This document shows, in pieces, positions 7,120 through 23,965 of a stretch of 39,939 nucleotides of DNA; position 1 is the first letter of the stretch; every line of letters starts with the position of its first letter. Position numbers and translations under genes: made by a program. Under the pieces are notes generated by a model. It made no database searches and was not told where the DNA came from. It was given only the letters and a program-made list of their open reading frames with translations. The DNA is from a virus (lineage: Duplodnaviria; Heunggongvirae; Uroviricota; Caudoviricetes): IMG/VR virus record IMGVR_UViG_2671180758_000025; one strand, 5' to 3'.

Positions 7120-7635
7120 TCAGAGGCCGAGGGCGTTGCGGTGCGCTTCCATCAGGTCCACACCGTCCACAATTTCCACCATGTTGATAAGGTCCACTTC
7201 ATAGAGCACCTCACCATTGATGGTCAGCTTCGCGTAGCTGTTGGTACTGGTCACTTTGGTGGTGTTGCTTTCGCCCGTCTTCCACTCGCCGGAATCCACT
7301 TCTTTGTGACGTCCACGCACGACAAGCTCCACGGCCTGCACTTCCCCGGTATCGTCACGCTGAATAGAGCCAGTAAAGCGCAGCTGGATGCCATCCACCG
7401 TGGCTTTACCCATCTGTTTAAACAGCAGCAATTCAGTACCACCAATGGAAAATTCTGTGTCCAGCGCACTGTCATCAAGCCCCAGATCCACATCCACCGC
7501 ACCCGGCATTCCGCCGCCGCGATACTTCTCATATTTGCGGGTAAATTTCGGCAGCGTCAGCGACTCAACGATCCCCTGCCAGTTGTTCCCGTCGTTAAAC
7601 AGGTTCAGGTGTTTTAATTTGCGTGGTAAAGCCAT
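7120..7635 (-). CDS. FII: Tail tube protein (P2 gpFII homolog)
   Basis: 171-aa ORF directly downstream of the sheath gene; translation recognised as FII family. Confidence 0.9.
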   Translation of the reverse strand: MALPRKLKHLNLFNDGNNWQGIVESLTLPKFTRKYEKYRGGGMPGAVDVDLGLDDSALDTEFSIGGTELLLFKQMGKATVDGIQLRFTGSIQRDDTGEVQAVELVVRGRHKEVDSGEWKTGESNTTKVTSTNSYAKLTINGEVLYEVDLINMVEIVDGVDLMEAHRNALGL

Positions 7636-7644
7636 GTTGTCCCC

Positions 7645-8817
7645 TTACGCGCTGACCTGGCTGGCGAAATTCACCAGGTACTGATCGGTGATGCGCTGAC
7701 GCAGCATCAGGTTTTCAAGTGGCGGCACTGGCGTGTAGTCGTAGTCGATGGTGAGTTTTCCGGCTTTCAGCGTGTCTTTGTCGTTCACCGACTCATCCAG
7801 CCAGCAATCACCACCAATGAGATAGCCCTGACTGACCAGGCTGCGCATTTTGGCGCGGATACCTTCGATAATGTCGCGGGCCAGCGACGGGTTAAGCGGT
7901 TTATCCACCGCCCACATGTGTGCTTCTGCCATCGTGTCCATCAGCACCTGCGCCGTGCGGGTGTAGTTTTCGAAGGCAAAGAGCGGGTCATCACTCAGGC
8001 AGCGGGAACCCCAGAAGCGGAAACCGTCTTTACGCACAAGCGTGGTGACGTCGTTCTGGTTCAGCAGACCTGCATCGGTTGCCGGGTCCTGCAGATCCCA
8101 GAACACATCTGCAGAAATTCCGGTGACACCGTTCACGCCCACGTTGGACAGGCTTTTGTGCCATCCGGTCTGCTCGTCAATTTTGGCGCGCAGACCAAGC
8201 GCACGGGCGGTGGCATATGCCGTTGCTTCGGCATTCAGCACCGTGTCCCAGCCAGTAAAGTCAGGCCAGATCAGCATCCCTTCGCGCTGGCTGAAGTTTT
8301 CGCGGTAAGTGATCGCCTCCTGCACTGTCTTGCAGCCATACGCTGACAGGTAAGCAAATCCACGCAGGCTTTGCGCCACGCTCAGCAACTCAGTAGCTAC
8401 CGCCTTGGTGTCGTGGCCTGGCACGCCGAGAATGCGCGGTTTAACGCCGAGCTGTGACTGGGCAGATAACAGGGCTTTCATACCTGTTTTTTTACCTTCA
8501 GCAGTCACTGCGCCGATGATATTGGTCGTGGTTTCGTCTTCCGTTTCACCCTGCGGCACACGCACAACAATGGTCACGGGTTTTGCCTGGTCAGCGATGG
8601 CATCCAGCGAACGGGCCAGAGTACCGGACTCACCCGCTTTACCGCTGGCAGTCAGCACATCAGTGATCAGCACTGGTTTATTAAGAGGAAACATTTTTGC
8701 ATCGGCATCATCGCCCGTGCAGACCATACCCACGATGGCGGTGCTCACCGTGGTAATGGATCGGGTGCCTTCGTTGACTTCAACAACGCGCACCCCGTGG
8801 TGGTAATCCTGAGCCAT
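7645..8817 (-). CDS. FI: Tail sheath protein (P2 gpFI homolog)
   Basis: 390-aa ORF; translation recognised as contractile sheath; first gene after a TGT-N12-ACA box. Confidence 0.92.
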
Positions 8818-8949: not shown

Positions 8950-9384
8950 TCAGACTTCTGGTGATAAAGGCCAGACTATATCCGGGGCATCACTTACATT
9001 AATATTTTCAAGTAACTCAAGATAATCCAGCATCGCATTAAATCTGGTTGTCTCCATTTCGTTCAGCCTGCCAAGCTGTAATTTTGATGGCCATTGTTTT
9101 TCATTAATCAGGTTGTTAGCCTCATTAATGCGCATCTGTTTCATCATTTCTGCCTGTTCCACCTGTTCCTCATGGGTCAATGGTGGACGTTCTTCCCATG
9201 ATGGCTGGTTATCAGTGCCTGCAACCATTTTGTACCCTTCCCGATAACCAAGATAAAACTCCTGATAGACTGCATCACTTACCTCAATACAGTCATCCGG
9301 CCACGCATCGAGAGCATCGTAATAATCAGATTTCAGTTCACTGTTATAAAATGCATTTCTTGATGGACTGTAAAAATAACTCAT
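8950..9384 (-). CDS. Tail fibre assembly protein (Tfa family)
   Basis: C-terminus ...NVSDAPDIVWPLSPEV matches the Tfa C-terminal motif. Start placed at the ATG that overlaps the tail-fibre stop (ATGA); the supplied ORF extends to 9417. Confidence 0.75.
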   Translation of the reverse strand: MSYFYSPSRNAFYNSELKSDYYDALDAWPDDCIEVSDAVYQEFYLGYREGYKMVAGTDNQPSWEERPPLTHEEQVEQAEMMKQMRINEANNLINEKQWPSKLQLGRLNEMETTRFNAMLDYLELLENINVSDAPDIVWPLSPEV

Positions 9385-11114
9385 CAGACCCCCTCCGCAA
9401 TAAACCCAATATTCCATCCACCGTTATCTCCGGTGATGCTCAGAGTAAAGCCAGTTGCAGTAATAGCTGTAATGGCGACACCCTCAACACTCCCACCGTG
9501 TGACGAACGGAAAACGGGGATCACGTACCAGCACTGACGGGCAAATGGTGTCGGAAAATTCACCTGATACTCTTTATTCACCACACCAGTTGCCCCGGAA
9601 AAATAACTGTTAAAAAACTGCTTCAGCACACCGCCAGTTATTCGGTGATAATTGCTGCCAAATGAAAATTCATCTTCACAAACACCCCGACGCCATAGTG
9701 TTGTATTGTCTTTAACCGTATCAGAGCCGCTGAAACGGTGATACATTTCCCCTGCTCCGGTGATGAAAATCTGCGCGCGTCTGTTCTTGTTATACGCAGC
9801 CTGAAAACCTGCACCATTCGATGGCACTTCATCTGCATTACCTGAATATGCAAGAAACTGTGAAACCTCACCCATTTCGTAGTTATTATTGCTACCGATT
9901 CCGTATGCTCCCTGTTGCAGAGCACTTTCAGCCTTATCAACCGTCGGTTTAAGTCCCAGATTCTGAATAAACAAAGTCGGGTCAGGAATATCAGCACCAT
10001 TGCGGTCCTTTGCCAGTCTCGCGCTGGCGTTGTCCATCGCAATTTTTACCGCTTTCAATGTCGCCGCAACATTTTCTGACACGCTGTTTACATCGTTCCC
10101 CAGTTGCACCATTCCTTTAACACTCACTGATGCTTCTGGATAATGTGCACTGGTGAACACCTGATTCCACGGTGTTTCATCATCGGCAATTTTCGATAAC
10201 ATGCTGAATCGACAGTACATCTTGCCATCATTAGCGACATAAATCTGTGCACGTCGATTGTCGTTGTAACAGGCCTGGAAACCAGCACCATGTGTTGGCA
10301 CTTCTGGATAGCCGACAGCTGTACCATAAGCAAAAAATTGCGATTTGGTTCCCATGGTTTTCAGATAAGCCAGGCCAATTCCATAATCTCCTGGCTGAAT
10401 CGCTGATGCAGCTTTATCAACAGTCGTTTTCAATCCCAGATTCTGAACAAACAGTGCCGGATTGGGAATATCAGAACCATTGCGGTCTTTTGCCAGTCTG
10501 GCGCTGGCATTATCCATCGCTATTTTCACTGCTTTTGGCGTTGCAGCGACTGTTTCATCATTGCTTTCCACACCGCTATACAGACGTACAAATCCCTTTT
10601 CTGTCAAAGACGCAGAAGGATGGAGGCGCGATTGCTCATGAATTTCTATTTGTTGATCTACATAATGACGGGTTGCCAGCACGACAGCAGGGTCGATTTT
10701 CAGGGTGATATTATCCGTACTGCTGGTAATCAGCACCATGCGCACGGTCTGGGTGCGCCCGCTGCCTTCAGCCAGTTGTGGCTTATAGCTTTCCGGGCAG
10801 TTGCCCACGGCAATCAATGCCCCGGACTCATCAAACAGGCCCACTTCACGTATCCACCAACCGCCCTCGTTTTCTGGGATCACCTGTTCGGCAATAATCT
10901 GGCTGCTGTTCTGCGGGTCGATATAGAGCATATTCAGCGCAGCCCGGCGTTTCTCATTTACCAATGCTGTCTGCTTTGCGTCCGGCGTTGGCAATGTTCC
11001 GCCGCCATCGCCGACCGCCATATGGGTAATTTTTAAAGGCACACCGAGCGCGGCGGCGCTGGCAAGTTTCGCCGCGCCAATATCCGTCAGCAGGGTATAA
11101 AATTTTGTGCTCAT
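9384..11114 (-). CDS. H: Tail fibre protein (P2 gpH homolog) with an internal tandem duplication
   Basis: 576-aa ORF; N-terminus MSTKFYTLLTDIGAAKLA... is gpH-like. Two ~120-aa repeat units (ETVAATPKAVKIAMDNASARLAKDRNG...) lie 480 nt apart. Confidence 0.9.
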   Translation of the reverse strand: MSTKFYTLLTDIGAAKLASAAALGVPLKITHMAVGDGGGTLPTPDAKQTALVNEKRRAALNMLYIDPQNSSQIIAEQVIPENEGGWWIREVGLFDESGALIAVGNCPESYKPQLAEGSGRTQTVRMVLITSSTDNITLKIDPAVVLATRHYVDQQIEIHEQSRLHPSASLTEKGFVRLYSGVESNDETVAATPKAVKIAMDNASARLAKDRNGSDIPNPALFVQNLGLKTTVDKAASAIQPGDYGIGLAYLKTMGTKSQFFAYGTAVGYPEVPTHGAGFQACYNDNRRAQIYVANDGKMYCRFSMLSKIADDETPWNQVFTSAHYPEASVSVKGMVQLGNDVNSVSENVAATLKAVKIAMDNASARLAKDRNGADIPDPTLFIQNLGLKPTVDKAESALQQGAYGIGSNNNYEMGEVSQFLAYSGNADEVPSNGAGFQAAYNKNRRAQIFITGAGEMYHRFSGSDTVKDNTTLWRRGVCEDEFSFGSNYHRITGGVLKQFFNSYFSGATGVVNKEYQVNFPTPFARQCWYVIPVFRSSHGGSVEGVAITAITATGFTLSITGDNGGWNIGFIAEGV

Positions 11115-19556: not shown

Positions 19557-21323
19557 ATGAACACCACACTGACACCCGCAGATCTCGATCCCCGTCGGCA
19601 GGCCATGCTGCTGTACTTTCAGGGATACCGCGTAGCCCGCATTGCTGAAATGCTGGGCGAGAAAGTTGCAACCGTTCACAGCTGGAAAAAACGCGACAAG
19701 TGGGGTGACTATGGGCCGCTGGATCAGATGCAGCTCACCACCGCCGCACGCTACTGCCAGCTCATTATGAAGGAGCACAAAGAAGGGAAAGATTTCAAAG
19801 AAATTGACCTGCTGGCACGCCAGTCTGAGCGCCACGCGCGGATCGGCAAGTTTAACAATGGCGGCAACGAAGCCGACTTAAACCCTAACGTTGCCAACCG
19901 CAACAAAGGCCCACGTCGTCAGCCGGAAAAGAATGTTTTCACCGATGAACAGATTGAGAAACTGGAAGAAATCTTCCATTCCTCTATGTTCAACTACCAG
20001 CGCCACTGGTGGGAAGCCGGAAAAACCAACCGCATCCGCAACCTGCTGAAGTCACGCCAGATCGGCGCGACCTTTTACTTTGCCCGTGAAGCCCTGATTG
20101 ACGCCCTGCTGACCGGGCGTAACCAGATTTTCCTTTCTGCCAGCAAGGCTCAGGCCCACGTCTTTAAACAGTACATCATCGACTTTGCCAAAGAAGTGGA
20201 GGTGGAGCTGAAAGGCGATCCGATGGTGCTTCCTAACGGGGCCACGCTTTACTTCCTCGGCACCAATGCCCGCACGGCCCAGAGTTACCACGGCAACCTG
20301 TATCTGGATGAATATTTCTGGATACCGAAATTCCAGGAGCTGCGCAAAGTGGCTTCCGGTATGGCTATTCACAAAAAATGGCGACAAACCTATTTTTCCA
20401 CGCCATCCAGTCTGACACACAGTGCTTATCCGTTCTGGTCCGGTGCGCTGTTCAACCGTGGGCGCAACAAAGCCGATAAGGTGGACATCGACCTGTCCCA
20501 CAGCAATCTGGCCCCCGGCCTGCTGTGCGCAGACGGGCAATACCGCCAGATAGTCACCGTGGAAGATGCGGTGCGCGGCGGCTGTAACCTGTTCGACCTC
20601 GACCAGCTACGCATGGAGTACAGCCCAGACGAATACCAGAACCTGCTGATGTGCGAGTTTGTGGACGATCTCGCGTCCGTGTTTCCGCTCAGCGAGCTGC
20701 AGGCGTGCATGGTGGACAGTTGGGAAGTCTGGACCGACTTTCATGCACTGGCGCTGCGCCCGTTTGGCTGGCGCGAAGTGTGGATCGGTTATGACCCGGC
20801 AAAAGGTACGCAAAACGGCGACAGCGCTGGATGCGTGGTGGTGGCACCGCCAGCCGTGCCGGGTGGTAAGTTCCGCATTCTTGAGCGTCACCAGTGGCGC
20901 GGGATGGACTTCCGCGCCCAGGCTGACGCCATCAAAAAACTTACCGAACAGTACAACGTGACTTATATCGGTATCGACTCAACCGGCGTTGGTCACGGGG
21001 TTTACGAGAACGTGAAAGCGTTTTTTCCTGCCGTCCGGGAGTTTGTCTACAACCCCAACGTTAAAAACGCCCTGGTACTCAAGGCCTACGACATTATCAG
21101 CCACCGCCGTCTGGAGTTTGACGCCGGACACACCGACATAGCGCAGTCCTTTATGGCAATCCGTCGCGCCACCACCGCCAGTGGCAACCGCCCGACCTAT
21201 GAAGCCAGCCGCAGCGAAGAAGCCAGCCACGCCGATCTGGCCTGGGCAACGATGCACGCACTGTTTAACGAACCGCTGCAGGGCGAGTCCGCCAATACCA
21301 GTAATATTGTGGAGATTTTTTGA
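19557..21323 (+). CDS. P: Terminase large (ATPase) subunit (P2 gpP homolog)
   Basis: 588-aa ORF; translation recognised as gpP family. Confidence 0.93.
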   Translation: MNTTLTPADLDPRRQAMLLYFQGYRVARIAEMLGEKVATVHSWKKRDKWGDYGPLDQMQLTTAARYCQLIMKEHKEGKDFKEIDLLARQSERHARIGKFNNGGNEADLNPNVANRNKGPRRQPEKNVFTDEQIEKLEEIFHSSMFNYQRHWWEAGKTNRIRNLLKSRQIGATFYFAREALIDALLTGRNQIFLSASKAQAHVFKQYIIDFAKEVEVELKGDPMVLPNGATLYFLGTNARTAQSYHGNLYLDEYFWIPKFQELRKVASGMAIHKKWRQTYFSTPSSLTHSAYPFWSGALFNRGRNKADKVDIDLSHSNLAPGLLCADGQYRQIVTVEDAVRGGCNLFDLDQLRMEYSPDEYQNLLMCEFVDDLASVFPLSELQACMVDSWEVWTDFHALALRPFGWREVWIGYDPAKGTQNGDSAGCVVVAPPAVPGGKFRILERHQWRGMDFRAQADAIKKLTEQYNVTYIGIDSTGVGHGVYENVKAFFPAVREFVYNPNVKNALVLKAYDIISHRRLEFDAGHTDIAQSFMAIRRATTASGNRPTYEASRSEEASHADLAWATMHALFNEPLQGESANTSNIVEIF

Positions 21324-22357
21324 TGGGAAAGAGTAAGAAGAACCGCGCTGCGGCGACGAATCAGATCCAGCATAAAAACCAAACTTCAGCCGAAGCATTC
21401 AGCTTCGGTGATCCCGTTCCTGTTCTGGACCGCCGGGAACTGCTGGACTATGTGGAATGCGTACAGACAGATCGTTGGTATGAGCCGCCAGTGAGTTTCG
21501 ACGGGCTGGCGCGTACCTTTCGCGCTGCCGTGCATCACAGTTCACCAATTGCGGTGAAATGCAACATTCTGACCAGTACCTACATCCCTCACCCGCTGCT
21601 CAGCCAGCAGGCTTTTTCACGTTTTGTGCAGGACTATCTGGTATTTGGTAACGCCTACCTGGAGAAACGCACGAACCGCTTCGGTGAAGTTATCGCCCTT
21701 GAGCCTGCTCTGGCAAAATACACCCGACGCGGGTTAGACCTGAATACCTACTGGTTTGTGCAATACGGTATGACAACCCAGCCGTATCAGTTCACGAAAG
21801 GCAGCATTTTTCATCTGATGGAACCGGACATCAACCAGGAGATCTACGGCCTGCCCGGCTATCTTTCTGCCATTCCGTCCGCCCTGCTCAATGAGTCCGC
21901 CACGCTGTTCCGCCGTAAGTATTACATCAACGGCAGTCATGCTGGTTTCATCATGTACATGACCGACGCTGCGCAGAACCAGGAGGACGTGAACAACCTC
22001 CGCAACGCGATGAAAAGCGCCAAAGGCCCTGGCAACTTCCGCAATCTGTTTATGTACTCGCCTAACGGCAAAAAGGACGGGCTTCAGATTATCCCGTTGT
22101 CAGAAGTCGCAGCGAAGGATGAGTTTCTGAATATCAAAAACGTGAGCCGTGACGACATGATGGCTGCGCACCGCGTGCCGCCGCAAATGATGGGGATAAT
22201 GCCTAATAATGTCGGGGGGTTTGGGGATGTGGAGAAAGCCAGTCGCGTATTTGTACGTAATGAATTAACGCCCTTGCAAAAAAGGCTACAAGAGCTGAAC
22301 GACTGGCTGGGCGAAGAAGTGATTAAATTTACGCCCTATATTCTTTCAGAAGAATAA
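21323..22357 (+). CDS. Q: Portal protein (P2 gpQ homolog)
   Basis: Start placed at the ATG overlapping the P stop (TGATG); the supplied ORF begins 3 nt earlier at TTG. Confidence 0.9.
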   Translation: MGKSKKNRAAATNQIQHKNQTSAEAFSFGDPVPVLDRRELLDYVECVQTDRWYEPPVSFDGLARTFRAAVHHSSPIAVKCNILTSTYIPHPLLSQQAFSRFVQDYLVFGNAYLEKRTNRFGEVIALEPALAKYTRRGLDLNTYWFVQYGMTTQPYQFTKGSIFHLMEPDINQEIYGLPGYLSAIPSALLNESATLFRRKYYINGSHAGFIMYMTDAAQNQEDVNNLRNAMKSAKGPGNFRNLFMYSPNGKKDGLQIIPLSEVAAKDEFLNIKNVSRDDMMAAHRVPPQMMGIMPNNVGGFGDVEKASRVFVRNELTPLQKRLQELNDWLGEEVIKFTPYILSEE

Positions 22358-22365
22358 TTCCGAAC

Positions 22366-23064
22366 TTATTTGTTTCTTCTTTGTTCACGCCTTGTCTTGG
22401 CTTCGATAAGGCGTTGAGGTTCAGTGTAAAGCCGTTCTAAAAAAAGATAGGTAAAATCTTCAAGATCCTCAGCAGCAGCTTTATCCAAAATACCTTCATG
22501 CGCTCCATCATTTCCGTCATCTTTAACGCATTCAGCTAGTTCCCTTAAAGCTTCAGGCAGTAGATGATTATCAAATAACCACTCCATTCTTAACCCTAGG
22601 CTTCTCCTTATTTTTTGCGCAGGCCCTTGCTCCCCATCAGGAAGAAGTCCTTTTGTGGCATAATCAAGGCAAAGCCTAAACATGGTTGCTGCTGCATTAT
22701 AACAACCTATAGCCAAACATTTCGCCCCTTCCTCATATGCACTATTGATATGCTCAGGTAAGAACTCTGGTGGCTCCTCTACTGCTAAGTCTGCTGGTGA
22801 TATAGGCCTAACAACCTCTGCAACTTCCTTTAAGCCGAATATTCCACTTTCCCAATTATAGCCATCTAAAGTTTTATTTTTCGTTAAAGGTCTGCAAAGA
22901 AACATTGTCGTTTTATGACACTCTCGGCAAACACAATAGACCTCGTACTCGTATGTTTTACCCCCGCCCAATGCATTGTAAACCCTAGTGCAATTCAGCC
23001 CATTAACATCAAACGCTATTTTTTGTGATCCACATCGTGGACAGTCATCCACTAACATAACCAT
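22366..23064 (-). CDS. Hypothetical cargo protein with N-terminal Cys4 zinc ribbon
   Basis: 232-aa ORF; CPRCGS...CVCRECHKT pattern at the N-terminus, then an acidic helical C-terminal region of no family I can name. Visibly AT-rich; converges on Q. Confidence 0.6.
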   Translation of the reverse strand: MVMLVDDCPRCGSQKIAFDVNGLNCTRVYNALGGGKTYEYEVYCVCRECHKTTMFLCRPLTKNKTLDGYNWESGIFGLKEVAEVVRPISPADLAVEEPPEFLPEHINSAYEEGAKCLAIGCYNAAATMFRLCLDYATKGLLPDGEQGPAQKIRRSLGLRMEWLFDNHLLPEALRELAECVKDDGNDGAHEGILDKAAAEDLEDFTYLFLERLYTEPQRLIEAKTRREQRRNK

Positions 23065-23353: not shown

Positions 23354-23965
23354 CTACGTAACCACAGTTAATGTGTGCATCCTGTCTCGAATTGCATCAC
23401 ACGTCTCATCAAAAAGCTTGGTGATGGTTGTATGGTTCAACTCCGCCTCTTTCCAATAATTTTGCCCGTCAAATTCTGGATCGCTATGCTTAAACGATAT
23501 TGACTCTGAAAGGCATTCCTTCCGGAAACGGTCCAAGATTATATAAACCTCTGGTGAGATGAACGGTTTGTTAGATTCAACACTTGTAACAAAAGTGTTA
23601 AATGCATCAAAAAAAACTTTCAACCTTCTAAATTTTCTCTCTTCAAATGGTTCGTTGGGGTCAACATGATCCAGCGCAGGCCTCAGCTTAAGCACGCTTT
23701 CTCTAGTTTCAAACATCGAATTCCAAATGAGACTATATGCTGATAACTCCTTATCAAAATACGCTTTCGTTACATAAACAGAATTGTCTAACTTAGCCTT
23801 TATTCTTTCATTAGTTGCACTCAGTTGTGATTGAAATTCAGCAATATCTTTGTTTAGCCGCGACTTATATCTTTCTAAATAAACTTTCCCGATCCAAACA
23901 AATATGCCAGATGCAACAAAAGACACCCCACCCAACGAAGCCAGAACTTTAAAGACTAAATCCAT
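23354..23965 (-). CDS. Hypothetical membrane-anchored cargo protein
   Basis: 203-aa ORF with a single N-terminal TM helix (VLASLGGVSFVASGIFVWIG) and a soluble domain of unknown family; AT-rich. Confidence 0.6.
   Translation of the reverse strand: MDLVFKVLASLGGVSFVASGIFVWIGKVYLERYKSRLNKDIAEFQSQLSATNERIKAKLDNSVYVTKAYFDKELSAYSLIWNSMFETRESVLKLRPALDHVDPNEPFEERKFRRLKVFFDAFNTFVTSVESNKPFISPEVYIILDRFRKECLSESISFKHSDPEFDGQNYWKEAELNHTTITKLFDETCDAIRDRMHTLTVVT

Follow-up and report, generated by a model that had tools for sequence, protein, structure and literature searches.

The window analysed here is the whole stretch of 39,939 nucleotides of the viral record IMGVR_UViG_2671180758_000025, and all positions refer to it. 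Positions 9384 to 11114 contain a tail-fibre gene of the P2 gpH / 186 K type, an open reading frame of 1,731 nt that encodes 576 amino acids. It is encoded on the minus strand, as are its repeat units, domains and sites and the chaperone gene described below; the preliminary description of this DNA had given no strand. The N-terminal tail-collar (baseplate-attachment) domain (aa 1-149; 10668-11114) matched positions 1-149 of the 150-position Pfam profile PF12571 (Phage_tail_fib) with an E value of 6.9e-65. Two stretches of the protein matched PF03406 (Phage_fiber_2), a profile of 42 positions with a gathering score of 22 bits (E 1.7e-29, 101.6 bits), and the best of these spans aa 169-209. The junction between the collar and the distal cassette is at approximately aa 155 (window ~10649), and approximately 1,000 E. 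coli genomes have only the collar part of the fibre gene in common.

The fibre gene is flanked upstream by the gene for gpI (PF09684) and downstream by a tail-fibre assembly chaperone gene of the P2 gpG type (8950-9384; Caudo_TAP, PF02413, E 6.5e-26), with the sheath genes next. Judging from a 143-aa homologue at L003, a locus with a single-copy fibre gene that is discussed below, the chaperone likely starts at the ATG that overlaps the fibre stop codon. The window also contains genes for the sheath, the tube, gpD, gpA, an integrase and a 186-type CI repressor. The order baseplate J, I, fibre, chaperone, sheath and tube is that of a P2-like prophage and is the same in phage 186; the element that carries the fibre gene is a P2/186-like E. 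coli prophage.

The 160-codon repeat and the domains it carries

Self-alignments of the protein and of the DNA bore out the tandem duplication of approximately 480 nt that had been described inside this gene, and placed it in frame. Comparison of aa 165-326 with aa 327-576 by BLASTP gave 93 identities in 152 positions (61%, E 5e-59). At the nucleotide level, gene nt 580-706 and 1060-1186 were 84% identical across 127 nt at an offset of 480 (E 1.9e-36), and a second block (gene nt 811-874 and 1285-1348) was 75% identical at an offset of 474, which indicates one 2-codon indel between the units. A repeat search on the window paired 9895-10133 with 10375-10613 (71% identity, spacing 480), and 18 of 20 positions matched between 10021-10040 and 10501-10520, the example by which the nucleotide-level repeat had been reported. 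Tandem Repeats Finder reported no repeat because the copies are too diverged and fall below its identity range. The unit repeat is confirmed as real and far above chance.

The whole repeat occupies 9663-10622, so that the previously proposed span of 9720-10560 lies inside it. It consists of unit A (aa 165-324; 10143-10622) and unit B (aa 325-484; 9663-10142), each of which opens with one Phage_fiber_2 repeat and continues with a Mu-S-type box and a knob domain. Each unit measures 160 aa (480 nt) instead of the ~120 aa first proposed, and the similarity already begins approximately 20 aa upstream of the E(T/N)VAAT motif at which the units had been said to begin. The divergence of the copies in their distal parts was observed again: identity was 80% across alignment columns 21-60 and fell to 15% over the final 20.

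Knob A (~aa 240-325; 10140-10397) and knob B (~aa 400-485; 9660-9917) are 48% identical. An AlphaFold2 monomer model of knob A, made from a 62-sequence alignment, had a mean pLDDT of 86.8 and five beta strands, the knob fold being an antiparallel sheet of five or six strands covered by loops. Knob B reached a pLDDT of ~90 in a model of unit B plus the C-terminal tip, which had a mean pLDDT of 63 and a poorly modelled linker. The top three matches of the knob A model to the PDB via Foldseek were the R1/R2 pyocin fibres 6cl5, 6ct8 and 6cl6 (probability 0.97-0.60), and these were modest for this monomer model (E 0.08-0.35, TM 0.44-0.49); phage K gp144 (5m9f) was also among the matches. The model of unit B plus tip matched the same pyocin fibres with E values of 1.6e-5 to 8.9e-4; Foldseek target residues were not given, and we infer the assignment to pyocin Knob1/Knob2. 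When the knob A model was compared with BFVD, all named matches to rank 29 were tail fibre or tail proteins, the exceptions being two unnamed 'uncharacterized' phage proteins. Going by these best matches, the 85-aa domains of units A and B are predicted to be knob-like and of the pyocin-fibre type.

The knobs belong to a family of an 85-aa, beta-rich domain with 79 representatives among 1.84 billion proteins, and a set of 5.8 billion proteins searched with a profile of the knob alignment returned just 6, an uninformative yield. No Pfam or NCBIfam family matched the knob domain. NCBIfam gave nothing for the fibre protein, its knobs or their relatives, and the name 'pyocin knob domain-containing protein', which RefSeq gives to the P0129 family, is therefore not assignable to the knob-homologous region. 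When PDB sequences were searched with a profile of 62 knob sequences, only chance-level matches were obtained. There was no clear member of the knob family in L-413C/P2 H, 186 K or Mu S, with faint motif-level matches only in L-413C H, so that the tblastn matches of 32-44% to these fibres are mostly to the box.

The C-terminal tip (aa 485-576; 9387-9662) is probably a lectin-like foot, a beta-sandwich similar to AP22 gp53 and the Helix agglutinins. A match to Gp53-like_C at aa 508-570 (E 1e-4) scored 23.2 bits, below the Pfam gathering score of 24.9 bits. In the model of unit B plus tip, the tip was all-beta with a pLDDT of 52-72, and Foldseek matched the tip region to Helix agglutinins (probability 0.95-0.99), to the R1 pyocin foot 6cxb (probability 0.85) and to discoidin II. 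The tip sequence had no match in the PDB or in isolated phages. Knob B is separated from the tip by only ~20 residues, and the protein has no HxH motif anywhere. The primary receptor-binding part of the fibre would most likely be this separate lectin-like tip rather than the repeat.

Annotation of the 1,731-nt gene was found in 47 E. coli genomes that are complete, and both copies were present in 47/47; no complete genome had the single-copy form. Among the 120 protein clusters listed, which together occur on ~1,600 contigs (summed), 118 were exactly 576 aa long. An assembly artefact was ruled out by the occurrence of the same gene in these complete genomes and of the protein clusters on these contigs. 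Across the 118 full-length alleles the two-knob cassette was nearly invariant. In alleles that were 90-91% identical, the differences were confined to the N-terminal collar (52/164 residues), while residues 165-576 differed at 0-6 positions, and two different collars were found with the cassette. These alleles show a two-knob cassette that is conserved as a whole and moves between phages with different collars. A scan of GTDB species-representative genomes found 5 loci that matched the Phage_fiber_2 repeat and box only, and the two-knob cassette is thus not in those genomes.

Linkers, recombination joints and gix-like sites

The best-conserved 127 nt of each unit, the block of 84% identity, form box A (10409-10535), which encodes ...AVKIAMDNASARLAKDRNGSDIPNPALFVQNLGLK..., and box B (9929-10055). 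The Phage_fiber_2 repeat plus box A (aa 167-247) aligned with aa 111-191 of Mu S (E 6.7e-24), the constant/variable junction that contains gix, and this segment and aa 327-402 are each ~75% identical to it. Mu S was the only match of the full fibre protein in its homology search. Each box contains a degenerate homologue of Mu gix: TTGTTCAGAATCTGGGATTGAAAACG in unit A (10425-10450), which encodes FVQNLGLKT, and TTATTCAGAATCTGGGACTTAAACCG in unit B (9945-9970), which encodes FIQNLGLKP. Each agrees at 14/26 positions with the 26-mer of Mu gix, which encodes FIQNLGLQE and was found exactly at, and centred on, the annotated G-segment boundary of Mu. Nowhere else in the whole window did a gix scan give more than 17/26 matches.

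The presence in both units of a homologue of the gix-containing Mu S segment, and the annotation of a 'Mu-like inversion crossover site' at the equivalent place in the fibre gene K of phage 186, would be expected if the units were switchable alternative C-terminal cassettes that alter host range, as an active substrate or a remnant of Gin/Cin/Min-type inversion. We regard such an origin as extremely improbable. The two degenerate sites have the same orientation where inversion would call for opposite ones, and no Gin-like recombinase was detected in the 40-kb window (tblastn with Mu Gin aa 1-140, best E 6.1); an invertase or shufflon was dismissed on these two points. In addition, the chaperone and sheath genes directly follow the fibre gene, with no inverted second cassette. 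The gix-like sequence does not bound the unit, which starts approximately 57 codons upstream of it, and the crossover at L003 lies approximately 16 nt upstream of the gix-like site and not at its centre.

The comparison with related fibre genes that the preliminary description had proposed showed that one-copy and one-knob relatives exist, and that they are rare and look as if they arose from the two-copy gene by recombination. The single-copy gene at L003 agrees fully (100%) with box A over ~70 nt and, after the crossover, equally fully (100%) with unit B up to and including the tip. A five-sequence nucleotide alignment placed the switch within CTGATATTCC (10465-10474 in box A, with a twin at 9985-9994 in box B). 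The gene at L004 is 92-100% identical until the second Phage_fiber_2 repeat ends (...AATLKAVK; 10045-10055) and then continues into a Gly-rich (Gly_rich_2) tip, a type of tip found alone in ~313 genomes. Both are rare variants, and their junctions fall exactly within the conserved linkers, from which it follows that the linkers act as cassette-exchange joints. Three joints were mapped in all, one at ~aa 155, one within the Mu-S box and one following 'AVK'. At the sequence level the conserved linkers are shown to be the joints for the swap or deletion of cassettes by homologous recombination.

Efficient RecA recombination usually needs ~23-27 bp, and the longest exact run common to units A and B is 14 nt. 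Because this run is below that length, and because no complete genome is single-copy, frequent switching of the copy number was judged unlikely.

Age and origin of the two copies

The comparison of unit A with unit B gave a dS of ~1.7 and a dN/dS of 0.10-0.23, which indicates an old split and purifying selection. At synonymous sites the two copies resemble each other more in the box, with 63-75% identical codons, than in the remainder of the unit. The unit pair is probably a tandem repeat, old and in frame, of a 'linker + knob' module of 160 codons.

Two other origins were weighed. The preliminary description suggested that the halves are a duplicated and diversifying receptor-recognition module, which was weighed here as a recently duplicated receptor-binding module that changes fast under positive selection. 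The duplication itself stood, as an in-frame tandem repeat, and the diversification was not supported. The similarity of the units does fall toward their distal ends, and in R-type pyocin fibres Knob2 varies more than most other parts (PMC6116203). However, in addition to the substitution rates between the copies, the proportion of variable sites was 17-22% in the knobs and 20% in the tip compared to 40% in the collar, common alleles differed at only 0-2 positions per knob, and both copies are kept in every complete genome. A recent and positively selected duplication is consequently very unlikely.

The second possibility is that the pair grew by accretion, in which different fibre genes contributed two knob cassettes that had already diverged, homologous recombination at the conserved Phage_fiber_2 / Mu-S box linker brought these together, and no duplication in place occurred. 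We consider this conceivable, though somewhat doubtful. The core of knob B resembles knobs from other fibres more closely (up to 56%) than it does knob A (49%), the pairing of A and B as sisters was recovered in 59/100 bootstrap replicates, and dS between the units is saturated. Moreover, L003 and L004 show the same linkers used as recombination joints, and the greater likeness of the box at synonymous sites is as expected of a shared exchange point. On the other hand, over a 102-aa segment A and B are mutually closest among 1.84 billion representatives (48% versus ≤43%), and the repeat starts 20 aa before the box and stays precisely in its 160-codon register apart from a single 2-codon indel. 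Knob A is confined to the two-copy gene and the rare L004 recombinant family (P0199/P0122), and the distances would also be explained by faster evolution of knob A after a duplication. The old tandem repeat of the module is the origin we favour.

Proposed architecture and comparison with known fibres

Under the tandem-repeat reading, the fibre would be ordered as collar, knob A, knob B and foot, with each module made up of a Phage_fiber_2 repeat, a box around a degenerate Gin crossover site and an 85-residue knob-like domain. In the presumed trimer, the two modules would be stacked as two rod-plus-knob segments that may set the length and stiffness of the fibre, and the knobs may provide secondary sugar-binding surfaces above the foot. 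By analogy, a role of the knobs in recognition is plausible, since knob-fold domains have been implicated in sugar binding in R-type pyocins and the K1F endosialidase (PMC6116203). A further suggestion, that knob A, knob B and the foot are three sugar-binding stations of differing specificity which read a multi-part surface code, is unlikely. If it were true, the swap or deletion of a single knob at the linkers (compare L003 and L004) would re-tune the host range stepwise and leave the tip and its chaperone unchanged.

The locus is an example, resolved to the nucleotide, of P2-like fibres that would be assembled from exchangeable 'linker + knob' cassettes, and it draws attention to an 85-residue knob family of 79 representative clusters outside Pfam and NCBIfam. 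Chimeric fibres that retarget phages or tailocins could be engineered with the mapped joints as a guide. The understanding of tail fibres is unchanged by these results, as the duplication of domains, knobs in tandem and mosaicism mediated by boxes were established before.

The closest parallel is found in the R-type pyocin fibres of Pseudomonas aeruginosa (R1 PALES_06171 and R2 PA0620; 6CL5, 6CL6), which have two tandem knobs described as products of a duplication and a foot likened to the same lectin class as the matches of our tip (Buth et al. 2018, PMC6116203). Like our fibre, they belong to a P2-like contractile tail and have an N-terminal baseplate-binding part, two tandem knobs, a C-terminal lectin-like foot and a downstream folding chaperone, the knobs and foot being predicted here from monomer models, and pyocin fibres were the best Foldseek matches for both of our models. 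Since the repeat appears to match this two-knob design, it is ordinary. In contrast to the pyocins, our fibre has no detectable sequence similarity to PA0620-type fibres, its knobs are 48-61% identical compared to 20% in R2, its repeat takes in the whole linker (Phage_fiber_2 repeat and Mu-S box), and it lacks the long shaft and the buried iron bound by HxH between Knob2 and the foot. Tandem knobs also occur in gp45 of Staphylococcus phage phi11, and knob-like domains in phage K gp144 and T4 gp34 (PMC6116203); there, too, the fold class is repeated along a trimeric fibre, as predicted here, but these phages have unrelated hosts and tail types, and their proteins show no sequence similarity.

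In Mu S (PDB 5YVQ, 8JU3), the segment of aa 111-191 is homologous to both linker/box regions described here, as is that of phage 186 K. In Mu the segment occurs once and its 26-bp site is functional, and the phage has partner cassettes in inverted orientation and encodes the Gin invertase, whereas our gene has two direct copies with degenerate sites and no invertase in the window, and the box is followed by a knob in place of the Mu variable domain. Mosaic tail-fibre genes exchanged at conserved boxes have reportedly been described for P2, Mu, P1, p15B, lambda and T-even phages, in work said to be that of Haggard-Ljungquist et al. in 1992, Sandmeier et al. in 1992 and Sandmeier in 1994. Their junctions lie in conserved linkers, as they do here, and there is no difference in principle.

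The tail-fibre gene and its internal repeat

The window contains a P2/186-like Escherichia coli prophage, and the repeat lies within its tail-fibre ORF (576 aa; 9384-11114, minus strand). In the fibre protein, an N-terminal Phage_tail_fib collar domain (PF12571, E 6.9e-65) is followed by two Phage_fiber_2 repeats (PF03406) and, at the C-terminal end, by a weak Gp53-like_C match. A Tail_P2_I gene is located upstream of the ORF, and a Caudo_TAP tail-fibre assembly gene followed by the sheath and tube genes is located downstream. Based on these domains and gene neighbours, the 576-aa protein is a homologue of P2 gpH and 186 K. An identical gene is present in complete E. coli genomes, where it is annotated "phage tail-collar fiber domain-containing protein".

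The preliminary description had proposed a tandem repeat of about 480 nt inside this gene, and protein alignment confirmed it: unit A (residues 165-324; 10143-10622, minus strand) and unit B (residues 325-484; 9663-10142, minus strand) are 61% identical over 152 residues (E 5e-59). The position first assigned to it, 9720-10560, falls inside the repeat (9663-10622), but the unit length is 160 aa instead of ~120 aa, and the coding strand is the minus strand. In the nucleotide alignment, the units are most alike in a 127-nt block (84% identity, offset exactly 480 nt), while a second block is 75% identical at an offset of 474, which indicates one two-codon indel between the units. Tandem Repeats Finder did not report the repeat because the copies are too diverged.

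The ORF finder placed the assembly protein (155 aa) at 8950-9417 on the minus strand, with a start at 9417 and a 34-nt overlap with the fibre gene. Its homologue in L003, the recovered DNA of a variant fibre gene, is 143 aa long, which suggests that the true start is the ATG at 9382-9384, overlapping the fibre stop codon (ATGA) and giving 144 aa. Elsewhere, two accessory ORFs (22366-23064 and 23354-23965, both minus strand) lie between ORF 21320-22357, taken as portal gene Q from its position alone, and replication gene A, a location that in P2 is the old/tin hotspot. DUF4145 was identified in the first, which PADLOC also matched weakly to PD-T7-4, a candidate defence gene (E 1.2e-6); the second had no matches.

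A linker and a knob-like domain in each unit

Each unit opens with 80 residues made up of a Phage_fiber_2 repeat and then the box AVKIAMDNASARLAKDRNG(S/A)DIP.P.LF(V/I)QNLGLK. This stretch resembles residues 111-191 of the Mu tail-fibre protein S (approximately 75% identity, E 6.7e-24; PDB chains 5yvq and 8ju3). In Mu S, the matching stretch is the joint of the constant and invertible parts, and at the equivalent position the fibre gene K of phage 186 carries the annotation "Mu-like inversion crossover site". The single copy of the 26-bp gix sequence in Mu S encodes FIQNLGLQE and has its centre at the annotated G-segment boundary. Both window copies match gix at only 14 of 26 positions and are in direct orientation, and the window nowhere encodes a Gin-like recombinase. 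Rather than functional inversion sites, the copies are coding relics.

The remaining 85 residues of each unit, the knob domain, share the motif G.YGIG...SQF.AY...EVP..GAGFQA.YN.NRRAQI...G.MY.RFS...W. This domain falls outside all Pfam and NCBIfam families, and when 1.84 billion representatives were searched with a profile built from both copies, only 79 proteins reached an E-value of 0.001 or lower. The family members that were inspected or named resemble tail fibres; the knob is single in most members and double in a few, such as P0124 and the P0126/Hafnia family.

The structural evidence for the knob is indirect, as all models were of monomers and the match scores were modest. From a 62-sequence alignment, AlphaFold2 predicted the knob with confidence as a beta domain of five strands (mean pLDDT 86.8). 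In the PDB, the three top-ranking matches to this model were R1 and R2 pyocin fibres (prob 0.97-0.60, E 0.08-0.35, TM 0.44-0.49), phage K gp144 was also among the PDB matches, and the BFVD matches were tail fibres from many phages. The knob profile gave no sequence-level link to solved structures. When unit B was modelled with the tip, the C-terminal part that follows it, the knob reached a pLDDT of ~90 and the tip 52-72, and the linker was poor. The matches to this model were again these pyocin fibres (E 1.6e-5 to 8.9e-4), followed by Helix agglutinins, a fragment of the pyocin foot (6cxb) and discoidin II. Gene H of Yersinia phage L-413C shows a faint, repeated motif-level likeness to the knob profile (aa 279-324, 386-426 and 582-600; motif '...Q.YTTR.G..YIR...W..W', domain E-value ~0.1 each), a hint that P2 H has very diverged knob-like repeats of its own.

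Age, origin and recombination of the units

The dS between the units is ~1.7 overall (1.1 across the first 66 codons and saturated beyond) with a dN/dS of 0.10-0.23, which indicates an old split with both copies under purifying selection. For the allele comparison, 118 full-length 576-aa sequences were retrieved. In alleles 90-91% identical to the window protein, 52 of the 164 collar residues differ, compared to only 0-6 differences across residues 165-576; the two-knob-plus-foot cassette is thus a conserved unit carried on at least two collars. The repeat had been suggested to be a diversifying receptor-recognition module. A duplicated, knob-containing module is indeed present in the recognition half of the fibre, but, as these values indicate, it is neither recent nor diversifying. 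The collar part alone is common to the fibre gene and ~1,000 complete E. coli genomes, and a sharp mosaic boundary lies at ~10649-10656 (gene nt ~459-466, aa ~153-155), where the collar-coding part of those genomes, 95-98% identical, gives way to complete divergence.

In its knob core, unit B is closer to knobs from other fibres (up to 56%) than to unit A (49%), and A and B pair in only 59 of 100 neighbour-joining bootstrap replicates, as might be expected if two pre-diverged cassettes had been joined at the linker, which is a live alternative. Faster evolution of A after duplication would give the same distances. In favour of duplication in place, the simplest reading although not a proven one, are the exact 160-codon register, similarity that begins upstream of the box, and the finding that, across the entire segment, A and B are each other's closest relatives (48%).

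When one-copy and two-copy forms were compared, as the preliminary description had suggested, both units were found in 47 of 47 complete E. coli genomes with the cassette, and the one-knob form proved to be a rare variant, P0123. The lengths of the 120 listed protein clusters all fall within 573-579 aa, and these clusters occur on ~1,600 contigs. Two rare variants were recovered as DNA, P0123 (L003) and P0199 (L004). P0123 is a one-knob gene of 416 aa from two contigs. Identity to the window is only ~57-88% in the collar and first Phage_fiber_2 repeat, the next ~70 nt are 100% identical to box A, the best-conserved part of unit A, and past a switch inside CTGATATTCC the identity to unit B is 100% through the tip. 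This is the pattern that a crossover between box A and the corresponding box B in a two-copy gene would be expected to produce. The L003 tip is 100% nucleotide-identical to that of the window up to ~gene nt 1690. The L003 chaperone (7251-7682) has ~63% protein identity to that of the window (8950-9384), with 78% in the first 50 aa and ~50-60% after, so that tip and chaperone are not strictly co-inherited here.

P0199, from E. coli, is 92-100% identical to the window gene through the end of the second Phage_fiber_2 repeat (...AATLKAVK), past which it has a Gly_rich_2 tip. That tip alone occurs in ~313 complete genomes, and the L004-type fusion in none of the complete genomes. Both junctions are within the conserved linker, and the most plausible reading is that L003 and L004 derive from the common two-copy gene. 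RecA recombination has a minimal homology length, against which the longest exact run shared by A and B, 14 nt, probably makes RecA-mediated unit loss rare, fitting the observed stability. The two-copy gene is frameshifted in P0121 (491 aa, one contig), which enters the alternative frame inside unit B (9638-10042, minus strand) after 'YGIGGKNNYEMG', and is probably a pseudogene or a sequencing error.

Proposed function and likeness to pyocin fibres

The unit anatomy, the conservation pattern and the recombination joints are observed features of the gene. In a trimeric fibre, each unit would form a short rod, the linker, which is partly helical in a low-confidence model, and a trimeric knob, and two units in series would set the length and rigidity of the fibre. 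Following the two-site model proposed for pyocins by Buth et al. (PMC6116203), the lectin-like foot would be the likeliest primary receptor-binding site, and the two units may add secondary sugar-binding surfaces above it. It is unlikely that the repeat is the main receptor-binding domain. Among isolated phages in the collection, none has the fibre tip.

R-type pyocin fibres contain two tandem knob domains that arose from duplication and are 20% identical, and their C-terminal foot is lectin-like, resembling AP22 gp53, Helix pomatia agglutinin and discoidin II (Buth et al., PMC6116203). Together with the model matches to pyocin fibres, this description makes it most likely that the window fibre shares the pyocin distal plan of knob, knob and foot. 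In contrast to R-type pyocin fibres, which have a long iron-binding shaft, the window fibre is without such a shaft, as no HxH motif is present in its protein. Tandem knob domains and box-mediated mosaicism are already known in P2-, Mu- and pyocin-type fibres. The value of the window gene is modest and lies in its mapped natural cassette joints and in pointing to an unannotated knob family.
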